Positions 37,001 through 40,000 of a stretch of 64,000 nt of DNA are shown here, in pieces. Position numbers and translations under genes: made by a program. The DNA is from Amphiscolops sp. MND2022. Lineage: Eukaryota. Numbering within the stretch: position 1 is the stretch's first letter; every line of letters begins with the position of its first letter. The notes beneath the pieces were generated by a model that saw nothing but the letters and a program-made list of their open reading frames with translations, was not told the origin of the DNA and did not search any database. Location: contig OZ076409.1 of NCBI GenBank assembly GCA_964187785.1, positions 43,340,001-43,404,000 on the forward strand. The letters run 5' to 3'.

Positions 37001-40000
37001 AAATCAATTTAGTTTTCGCAATGCTTTATCAAAAGCTCTAACGGTAGATAAAGTATTATCAGAACCAGTTACCAAGCATCCAGAGATTCCAGCTATTTCT
37101 AAAATCTTCTTCGCTAGCGGAGATCCGGAAACAGATTCTGATTGCGCTGGTGTGAGGGTTAGCGATACATTTTGACAATTTGCATTGACTTCGCTTTTTA
37201 CATACTTCCCAACGTAACGGACGTTTCTCGATGCTTCTTCTTTGGCTTTGGATTCTGCCAGAACTCTAGAATTCGCAATTTTTCCCCGATTCCAATTGAT
37301 CCATGTCCATCTCCGACGGCAACACATGCCAAGTATCTAAATCTCTGCTGCACTTTACCGTTTTTATCTTTCAGGTTTTCCAGCGGGATGCATTTCAGTA
37401 ACTCCGTTTTCATATCGGGCTTCGATGAATCTAGTCGAATAATTTTGCTCGGGGTAAGGTCATCATGTTTTTTTCTTCTTCCGAAAGGTCCCATATCCAT
37501 TTCGTGATATATCTATACTCGGCGCATTTAATCTTTGAAGTCATCTTGCGATTTCGCTGAAATTGTTTTATTTGAATGATAGACGCTCTTTTTCATAAAA
37601 GTGTTGAAACACGATGGTTTCGTGCTGGGGAGTGGGTTTGCTTGTTTTTGAACCTCCGCTTCATTTTGTTTTTGCTTTAGTGAAACACCATATAGTTCGG
37701 ATATATTGCGAAAATTCCGATAACATTAAATTATTAACAGTCAGAAACATTGATTTTGTTGCCCGAAATTAATAGACCCTAATTCCAAGTAGTCAAGTGA
37801 CAGTCATTTGGGGGTGGTTGGGGGCGTTATGAGGAATAAAGGACCGAAAAAAACACTGCAGGGTAAAACAAACTAACCTTGTTGTAGACTACAGTTGGAA
37901 AAGTTGAGGTTCTTCACAAAGCAGTGACGACAAATGAAATGAGACGAAATAACACCTGAGAAAACTAATGTGTTTGCTTTTCAAACGCTCCAAATCGAAA
38001 GTTGAGTCAAACGAACAATTCCACTTGAAAGATCACTTGCAAAATGCGGGCTTCAATTTCGTTGAAACTGGTTTTGCAAGATTAATCATGCTGTTTTCAC
38101 CTGAATGATCTTTCTACAACTTCACATATTTCAAGTTCGAGGAAGTTCAGTGGCGGGTACCAATGCATATTGTTTGATTTCCGATATCTACTCACACTTT
38201 GATTAAGTTTCACACCCGTATTTTCAAAAATTTGAAACGCAATAGCCCTGCATCATCTTTGAAAAGCATATGAAAATGACCATCCTATAAAGTATTTGAC
38301 AAGCAATCACAAAAGATTTAGATTTCCGGAAACAATAATTTTGGGAAGATACTGTCTTCAAAACAAGGCAAAAAAGCAGGATGTCGTGGCAGGATATTTT
38401 TTGAAATTGATGATTTTAGTGGAGAGAATGCAAATTCCTTCTATACAACTTCACTTCTGTAAAAACGGTTTGTCTTTCACTTATTGTTACTTTTGAAAAG
38501 TCACAGTTCTAGGCACGAAGCAAGCAAAAGCTGCAAAATTTTGCAAAGGTAAATAATCTTCATTGTAGTTGAAGAGGTTGCTGGTGTAGTTTTGGCGATA
38601 AATATGGAATCCAGACAAATAGAACGCTATCAACAGTTGTTTTGATTTCCCCCTTCAATTTAATTCGAGTGCCGTCAGCTCAATGTAAAGTTAAAGTGTA
38701 TTGTTATGAAAACAAATTCATCTCACCGAAGCTTCTTTCTTTGTTGTGCCAGGGATGGTGATTTGTTTGAGGTTACCACTCACAAAAGAATAGATTGAAT
38801 CCAGGCGCTCAGAAGTTGGAGAATTCCAGCTAGCGCTCCAAAAGCTCTGAGATGAAGTAATTTTGCCCGTTTTTTTGCGAAAATTAGATCACTTTGTAAT
38901 CATATTAGGCTTAAGATTGGAACGGTTTCCAATGAAAATTACCACAGTCACCAGAATGAGATATGCTATTATGCTAATGATTTGATATTATTATATATTA
39001 ACGCCGCATTTAGCCAAAATCGTAATATATTGGGAATAAAATAAGTGATTTCAACTCCTCTTGGTGCAGTGGTTAGTTCTCTTGTTGGGAATCATTCCAC
39101 AGTCATAGGTCCCCTGTTCGAATCCGGGACTTGGCAATGTTTTTGTAAACTAAACCCCCCCCCCTAAATTCGGCCATCATATATAATATCAAACTACTCA
39201 CGAATTTTCAAAACGAATTTCGGAAAATTCCAACACATCCGTGTAAAACCCACACAGTATGTCTTTTTTCTTATAAAATCTGAATTAAGTTAATTTCAAA
39301 ACACATGAAATAAGTTCGAAGTTTCAGCGAAAAATATGTGAAAACTCTGCCGCGCCATATCAGTTTTGAATGGGTTCTACGGTATTAGACGTTGCTGTTC
39401 GTTGCTCTTATCTTTGATTTCATTGAGAAGTTGCGTCTTGTTTACAGGTTCAGCAAAGATATCGACGTCATCGACAACTCTCTGGCCAATGTGATGAAGT
39501 CGTTCATCCAGTGCCTGCTGATTGTGGTCACAGTTATGATAGCCATATGCAAGTCATTGCCCTACTTCTTTGGGGTGGTCCTTCCCCTGGCTGTTATTTA
39601 CTACCTCATTCTAGTATGTAATACTTTTCTTGAACACCCGCTCGTAGGATTAAATAGTTGGTGTAGATATGTAATACTTTTCTTGAACACCCACTCGTAG
39701 GATTAAATAGTTGGTGTAGATATGACTTCGGCTAATGTTGAGAAAAACTATTGAAGATTGCAAAGAATTTAGAATTCAAAAAAAAAATCTCAATTTTTTG
39801 GACTTCTGAAAAGTTTTCAAGTTTTGAAGAACTAATCGAATTTCTTGATTTTTTACGGTTCAAATAATTTTTCTTGCTCATAAAATTCTGCCGCATTGGA
39901 TGCGGCGCGAATGGGGCACCCTTCATTGCACGAAAATCGCCCATGCCAAGTAACTTCTGGTTCGTTTCAGGTGCTAGTTTTTTTAGCCATTAGTAACCCA

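Follow-up and report, generated by a model that had tools for sequence, protein, structure and literature searches.

A uS5-derived gene family with sixteen exchangeable subfamilies in the Polintons of an Amphiscolops genome

Most of the examined Polintons of this genome carry a gene derived from the eukaryotic small-subunit ribosomal protein uS5 (RPS2), which has radiated into 16 subfamilies, bears the marks of purifying selection and is exchanged between elements as part of a right-arm cassette. An earlier note on this DNA had proposed an old, repurposed capture, which the spread of the gene, the selection on it and its relatives in other organisms all support; the radiation and the cassette exchange go beyond what that note described. 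The copy from which the analysis starts lies in a stretch of 64,000 nucleotides (the window).

As had been proposed, the gene lies inside a Polinton, whose bounds in the window (21481-39198, 17.7 kb) are set by terminal inverted repeats (TIRs) and flanks. The element has AGTAGT ends and 92-bp TIRs that are 90% identical (left, 21481..21572, plus strand; right, 39107..39198, minus strand), and its 6-bp flanks, CACGGA and CACGAA, agree at five of six positions as a target duplication. From left to right on the plus strand it encodes a membrane-anchored EGF-like protein (21703..21972; EGF, E 4.9e-5), a packaging ATPase in a truncated ORF (24061..24504; Pox_A32, E 1.3e-5), a retroviral-like integrase (25575..26558; rve, E 1e-11), a likely capsid region recognized by its position between integrase and protease (26545..28997), an adenain-like maturation protease (29081..29509; Peptidase_C5, E 0.0066, below cut-off) and a protein-primed DNA polymerase B (pPolB; 30969..35202), which is split here into ORFs 30969-33614 and 33607-35202 and forms a frame of 1470-1483 aa in unbroken relatives. 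Within the capsid region we take 26545-27399 to be the minor capsid protein, 27761-28816 and its continuation to be the major capsid protein, and 27400-27771 to be a small basic ORF; these putative capsid ORFs have the expected size and place, have no Pfam match and are conserved in all complete elements fetched. The window pPolB matches DNA_pol_B_2 (E 1.7e-5, below the Pfam cut-off) and Endonuclease_7. The element thus has the enzymes that mark a Polinton (pPolB, integrase, ATPase and protease, the first and last with scores below Pfam cut-offs) as well as TIRs that start with AG. The uS5-like gene (37004..37544, minus strand) is convergent with pPolB and is separated from its 3' end by an 83-bp tandem array (35363..36739).

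The window copy of the gene, a member of subfamily A that is identified by Pfam S5 and S5_C matches and by tblastn, is broken. With a natural unbroken relative as the tblastn query it is recovered as three pieces in three frames, 78-93% identical to the natural unbroken protein P0002 and 73-88% identical to P0001, and these place one frameshift near 37450, another near 37280 and the start of the gene at 37544, giving a span of ~181 codons as in unbroken relatives. The two overlapping minus-strand ORFs reported earlier are indeed there (37004-37327 and 37198-37500), the downstream one matching Ribosomal_S5_C above cut-off (E 7e-6) and the upstream one matching Ribosomal_S5 below cut-off as a fragment (E 3.5e-4), but the proposed repair by one restored A to ~165 aa misses a frameshift, and the N-terminal residues that had been quoted were read out of frame. 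A second insertion on another chromosome, flanked by a perfect GTCCTG duplication and 92-98% identical to the window element along its length, has the same break near 37280. Because this insertion is independent, the break near 37280 is likely real and was then copied onward, and we read the window copy as dead and carried along, since one of its breaks recurs in the second insertion.

Unbroken copies of 181-182 aa are present elsewhere in the genome, and in these the proposed likeness to uS5 is borne out by significant Pfam profile matches to both S5 domains. All 38 aligned proteins (37 from Polintons, one from the host) match both Ribosomal_S5 (PF00333) and Ribosomal_S5_C (PF03719), and PDB sequence matches of the unbroken copies are topped by 40S uS5 (best E 7e-13). 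Structure prediction agrees: the subfamily A model (pLDDT 82) matches 40S uS5 by Foldseek at E 4e-11 with an rmsd of ~2 Å over 150 columns, the subfamily J model (pLDDT 96) has a TM-score of 0.88 to 40S uS5, and the top Foldseek matches of the predicted models are uS5 chains. A search of BFVD found nothing with an E-value of 0.001 or below, and complex prediction for a subfamily J protein with host eS21 yielded no verdict at a score of 0.00.

A quick IQ-TREE analysis (73 rows, 159 columns) that covered eukaryotic cytosolic, archaeal and bacterial uS5 unites the 45 uS5-like rows in a single clade (SH-aLRT 86), which is nested within eukaryotic cytosolic uS5 (SH-aLRT 95), apart from archaea and bacteria. 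Because the branches are long, the monophyly of this clade may reflect long-branch attraction and its sister group is uncertain. Grouping with RPS2 of the host lineage is not rejected by the AU test (p 0.155), and P66 and N132, which are rare in other eukaryotes, are common to host-lineage RPS2 and several subfamilies; we infer a single old capture from the present host lineage. The tree lends no support to two ideas formed by eye, a bacterial-like origin of subfamily E and an archaeal-like origin of subfamily J. A profile search of 1.84 billion representatives yielded 28 uS5-like proteins among the rows classed, and the relatives that were looked up are ENA or Logan sequences; no named protein of another animal of this Polinton type was among the rows classed. 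Subfamily A relatives in other organisms show 43-48% identity. Two database proteins, P0167 and P0142, share no more than 48% and 46% identity, respectively, with anything in the present genome, which makes an origin in other organisms likely, and with it an age of the subfamilies greater than a species split. IMG/VR scans with a subfamily A protein and with pPolB, and two JGI metagenome scans, gave no relative.

How widespread is the gene within the genome? Among the best 150 pPolB matches (of 2793 first-look candidates), which are 78-100% identical to the window stretch, the uS5-like gene lies downstream in 134; in 72 of the cases a previously known match is at most 9 kb away, and of the other 78, once fetched, 62 showed the gene. 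The total includes a few tandem duplicates with one common gene and leaves out more distant Polintons. Subfamilies B, C, E and K ride on polymerases that are just 48-69% identical. Searching from the side of the gene, the PF03719 profile matched all 150 candidates scored of 318 in the genome, and a control profile for eS21 had one match. Eighty 10-kb stretches were fetched, about one per score group and hence not at random. Four of these hold host genes, of which two are RPS2, one is likely mitochondrial and one is a paralog. The other 76 contain a convergent pPolB C-terminus in 63 cases, other Polinton genes in three, and no Polinton genes inside the stretch in ten, which are mostly fragments.

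The two host RPS2 genes (L026/L132 and L028/L133, G000 C5) are near-identical and have one late coding-region intron each. The paralog (L065/L224, G000 C1, ~84.64 Mb) is a diverged, multi-exon RPS2 gene outside any Polinton, has JGI counterparts P0240 and P0282, and forms a separate branch in the tree. At another locus (L063, G000 C12, ~37.27 Mb), S5_C fragments stand in a tandem array of ~748-bp period with no pPolB nearby.

Sixteen of the 150 elements are without the gene: six share another cassette, two have JmjC-like ORFs and the remaining eight look truncated or rearranged. The two with JmjC-like ORFs (L139 and L146, G000 C10, ~59.52-59.54 Mb) are complete-looking Polintons with polymerases 97-98% identical to that of the window, and in the slot of the uS5-like gene have two convergent ORFs of ~240-320 aa with no Pfam match, one of which has ESM Atlas features like those of JmjC proteins (0.92-0.96). 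The shared cassette of the six (L135, L136, L137, L138, L144 and L147), a third type, combines tandem repeats of ~700 bp with short ORFs that are probably spliced, one of which weakly resembles an integrase H2C2 zinc-binding domain. The uS5-like gene is thus dispensable in cis, because eight of the 150 elements carry a different cassette and a broken allele has been copied to a new site.

The 16 subfamilies were delimited by clustering 133 open segments (some loci among them fetched twice) into 15 clusters at 50% identity, to which D2, dropped by the clustering filter, was added. Mean identity between subfamilies is 21-45%. Seven non-overlapping pairs with dS of 0.27-1.5 gave dN/dS values of 0.12-0.35 (median 0.16), and in 287 further pairs dS is saturated and dN is 0.15-0.46; the corresponding pPolB median is 0.10 (11 pairs). 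These ratios indicate purifying selection on the uS5-like family. Very close pairs in D2 and F have dN/dS near 1, as is expected from decay after insertion. The earlier note had named a one-off processed pseudogene of host RPS2, found in this copy alone, as the finding that would undo its reading, and this is not what we see: the gene is present at 134 of 150 places, is selected and has relatives elsewhere, and the signs of a processed pseudogene (few copies, closeness to the host gene, neutral decay) are lacking.

The description of the gene as intronless holds for subfamily A. In B and F the core exon begins at an intron-like GT-AG boundary, away from the position of the host intron (loci L055-L057, L060, L061, L066, L076 and L079; L082, L094, L098 and L111). 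Upstream exons of subfamily B code for acidic, Asp/Glu-rich stretches, and subfamilies E and H have Ser-rich N-termini. One database protein, P0137, has an N-terminal half of subfamily N type and a C-terminal half 99% identical to subfamily E, and is either a recombinant allele or an assembly chimera.

Among the 561 pairs formed by 34 loci with both genes, 41 have polymerases at least 95% identical and uS5-like proteins less than 40% identical, none shows the reverse pattern of similar uS5-like proteins and dissimilar polymerases, and the rank correlation between the two identities is 0.11. Elements with 95-100% identical polymerases can carry alleles that are ~30% identical, and six subfamilies occur among the 20 elements whose polymerase stretch is at least 95% identical to that of the window. 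In the swapped pairs the polymerase side is 92-98% identical in DNA sequence up to or into the tandem array, the region across the gene is unalignable, and alignment resumes just for the outer 60-170 nt of the TIR. On the left-hand side, the gene set does not change with the allele, and the EGF-like gene at the left end is part of it. These alignments demonstrate, at the level of the DNA, that the right-arm cassette has been exchanged between elements. The array is present in 62 of 62 polymerase-anchored stretches with the gene and in four of 16 without it, and recombination in it is the probable route of exchange. The type of array is independent of the allele, and 83-bp units fold no better than shuffled sequences (z -0.8 to 0.9, four sequences). 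In the 83-bp arrays, AATAAA/ATTAAA occurs mainly on the sense strand of the uS5-like gene (259 versus 16 in 30 loci, counts from copies that are not independent); poly(A)-signal arrays are not a general rule, as 84-bp and 108-bp arrays do not have them.

What has selection kept in the protein? Its likeness to RPS2 extends from the two-domain fold, the best sequence and structure matches and the tree position to common motifs (an LK.IP / R.R..A.VAVGD..G..G.G core, helix alanines, and KCG-like and PA motifs). The Polinton proteins nevertheless differ from host RPS2: they are ~28-44% identical to it, lack both the RG-rich/FxxxFG tail and the C-terminal tail, have variable loop indels, and are encoded by a mobile, multicopy gene on branches at least ten-fold longer. 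At 37 positions conserved in eukaryotes and archaea, Gly, Ala, Pro and hydrophobic residues are kept in a mean of 9.6 of the 16 subfamilies and polar ones in a mean of 4.4. At the extremes (host numbering), G113, A129, A133 and G193 are kept in all 16, whereas otherwise invariant residues are mostly lost, with Q88 and E121 kept in one subfamily, R142 and K162 in two, and W145 mostly gone; E121 we take to be a residue at the mRNA entry channel. K83, R98 and K100 are mostly basic, with R or K at the position of R98 in all but one of the 16 subfamilies, and the two-domain fold and a basic face are retained throughout. The N-terminal helices of eukaryote/archaea type (W-x-P-K-T..GRLVK.G..KEPEI) persist in subfamilies H, I, J, N, O and Q, and loop losses differ by subfamily, affecting the hairpin loop, the PAPRGTG loop or the N-terminal helices. 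The loss of the RRGYWG loop noted earlier is complete in subfamily A but merely partial in other subfamilies.

The missing RG-rich N-terminus, by comparison, proves general: it is absent from 36 of 36 tabulated Polinton proteins, none of which has FxxxFG or more than two RG, while host RPS2 has FRGGFG and six RG. According to a published account (PMC10216425), this tail of uS5 is bound by PDCD2/Tsr4 and methylated by PRMT3, and the PDCD2/Tsr4 motif is required for efficient incorporation of uS5. Of the decoy for uS5 partners that the earlier note had suggested, the forms aimed at PDCD2/Tsr4 or at RG methylation are disfavored by the absence of these motifs from the 36 proteins. The fold, then, is under selection and the canonical ribosomal surface is not, and a faithful replacement subunit is unlikely because the RG/FxxxFG tail is lost, as are most of the polar surface residues that are otherwise invariant, features that a functional RPS2 has.

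We tentatively favor a trans-acting mimic of uS5 that would compete with the host protein in the small-subunit pathway without replacing it faithfully. The gene would be expressed during element activity, and its product would enter the nucleus by means of the retained basic strand, whose R98 region matches yeast uS5 95-RTRFK-99, described as an importin-binding signal in PMC10377357. It would then dock loosely where uS5 sits on pre-40S/40S particles, or on factors that bind uS5, and so might dampen or relax host translation or its surveillance to the advantage of the element, with recombination at the tandem array upholding allele diversity under host counter-selection. The eukaryote/archaea-type helices of six subfamilies and the basic R98 speak for a link to the ribosome pathway. 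Against the mimic, no ribosome-contact surface is common to all subfamilies, which counts because a shared ribosomal target should constrain one, the gene is dispensable in cis, and the universal residues are mostly structural with a few basic ones, equally suited to generic RNA binding. A rather unlikely alternative is a ribosome-independent RNA binder whose dsRBD-like N-domain would sit on element transcripts or dsRNA, possibly arising by convergent transcription into the array, and shield them from silencing. The basic face is kept while ribosome-specific polar residues are lost, 33 of 36 proteins are basic (pI 8.8-11.4), the gene runs toward pPolB and goes with the array in 62 of 62 polymerase-anchored cases, and the uS5 N-domain is itself described as dsRBD-like and in contact with 18S rRNA (PMC10216425). 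However, Pfam dsrm is matched in just one of 38 proteins (E 0.13), which does not make them canonical dsRBDs, every subfamily retains the C-terminal domain, and neither the shuffle-like folding of the array units nor the independence of array type from allele is what such a role would suggest.

Incorporation into mature 40S as a true substitute subunit, giving specialized ribosomes with a changed mRNA entry channel, we consider improbable. Both domains and their predicted geometry are retained, bacterial S5 functions with the core alone (PMC10216425) and six subfamilies have kept the N-terminal helices, but the subfamilies differ far more from one another than host RPS2 does across animals (~80% identical), indels fall in loops whose length is fixed in cellular uS5, and the PDCD2/Tsr4 motif for efficient incorporation and the eukaryotic C-terminal tail are absent. 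It is likewise unlikely, if less so, that at least 16 ancient uS5 alleles, swapped among near-identical backbones, would displace uS5 from its dock on host small subunits and so reset the mRNA entry channel, in an arms race at the ribosome. The diversity could instead be the function itself, with the uS5 fold a mere scaffold for a factor by which competing Polintons, allele by allele, tell self from non-self or exclude one another. Deep alleles do coexist and move among near-identical backbones, and subfamily A has relatives in other organisms; yet neither a partner gene nor an allele-matched target was found, and any host-driven arms race or frequent array recombination gives the same pattern, and we hold this to be very improbable. 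A hitchhiking processed RPS2 pseudogene, a neutral passenger, might be suspected from the broken state of the window copy and many others and from the near-neutral ratios of very close D2 and F pairs. It is refuted by the purifying selection seen at larger distances, and frames that stay open at saturated dS, both domains in a single frame in 50 of 62 polymerase-anchored copies and a fold predicted with high confidence leave it next to no probability.

Ribosomal protein genes are rare in eukaryotic viruses, and the reports that we found concern just two of them, both in giant viruses of protists: eL40 of FloV-SA2 (PMC11499249) and eL40 and S27a of ChrysoHV (PMC13595923). These too are host-derived ribosomal protein genes of putative function in eukaryotic DNA viruses, but they are small, are made by cells as ubiquitin fusions and occur in large protist viruses, whereas here a universal core small-subunit protein is encoded by an 18-kb integrating animal element in 16 exchangeable subfamilies. 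Phages also have captured ribosomal protein genes, bS21 and others (PMC13157829), in prokaryotic hosts and with no allelic cassette known; uS5 is unmentioned in the text of that paper. A similar setting is that of the accessory cargo of Polintons/Mavericks (adintoviruses), where host-derived genes lie toward one end of elements that likewise have TIRs and encode pPolB, integrase, ATPase and protease; the cargo reported comprises proteases, kinases, oncoid, anti-apoptotic and membrane-active genes (PMC8502044; 10.1101/2022.07.12.499685). The string "ribosom" occurs 0 times in the available text of the adintovirus paper (PMC8502044), and "uS5" 0 times in that of PMC11499249 and of PMC13712778. 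The last, a 2026 review, mentions several ribosomal protein homologs in NCLDVs, states that DNA viruses are not widely reported to alter ribosome composition and calls it open whether viruses can change it. We found no published report of uS5 in a Polinton or a eukaryotic virus, although supplements could hold one, and the family is apparently undescribed. Here a small, integrating, virus-like element of an animal has the gene of a core small-subunit protein as a nearly fixed component. The subfamilies put a natural panel of uS5 variants at hand for testing viral ribosome customization, and the swaps show clearly that an accessory cassette of Polintons can be exchanged.

Some further features of the window deserve mention. 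The TIRs contain a stretch (21525-21570 and 39107-39150) that resembles the reverse complement of a tRNA T-arm; ARAGORN found no tRNA gene. Outside the Polinton, an ABC transporter ATPase exon lies at 597-1100, and 45753-52569 is a BEL/Pao-like LTR retrotransposon with DUF1759, RT, integrase and DUF5641 between 157-nt direct repeats that are 99% identical.
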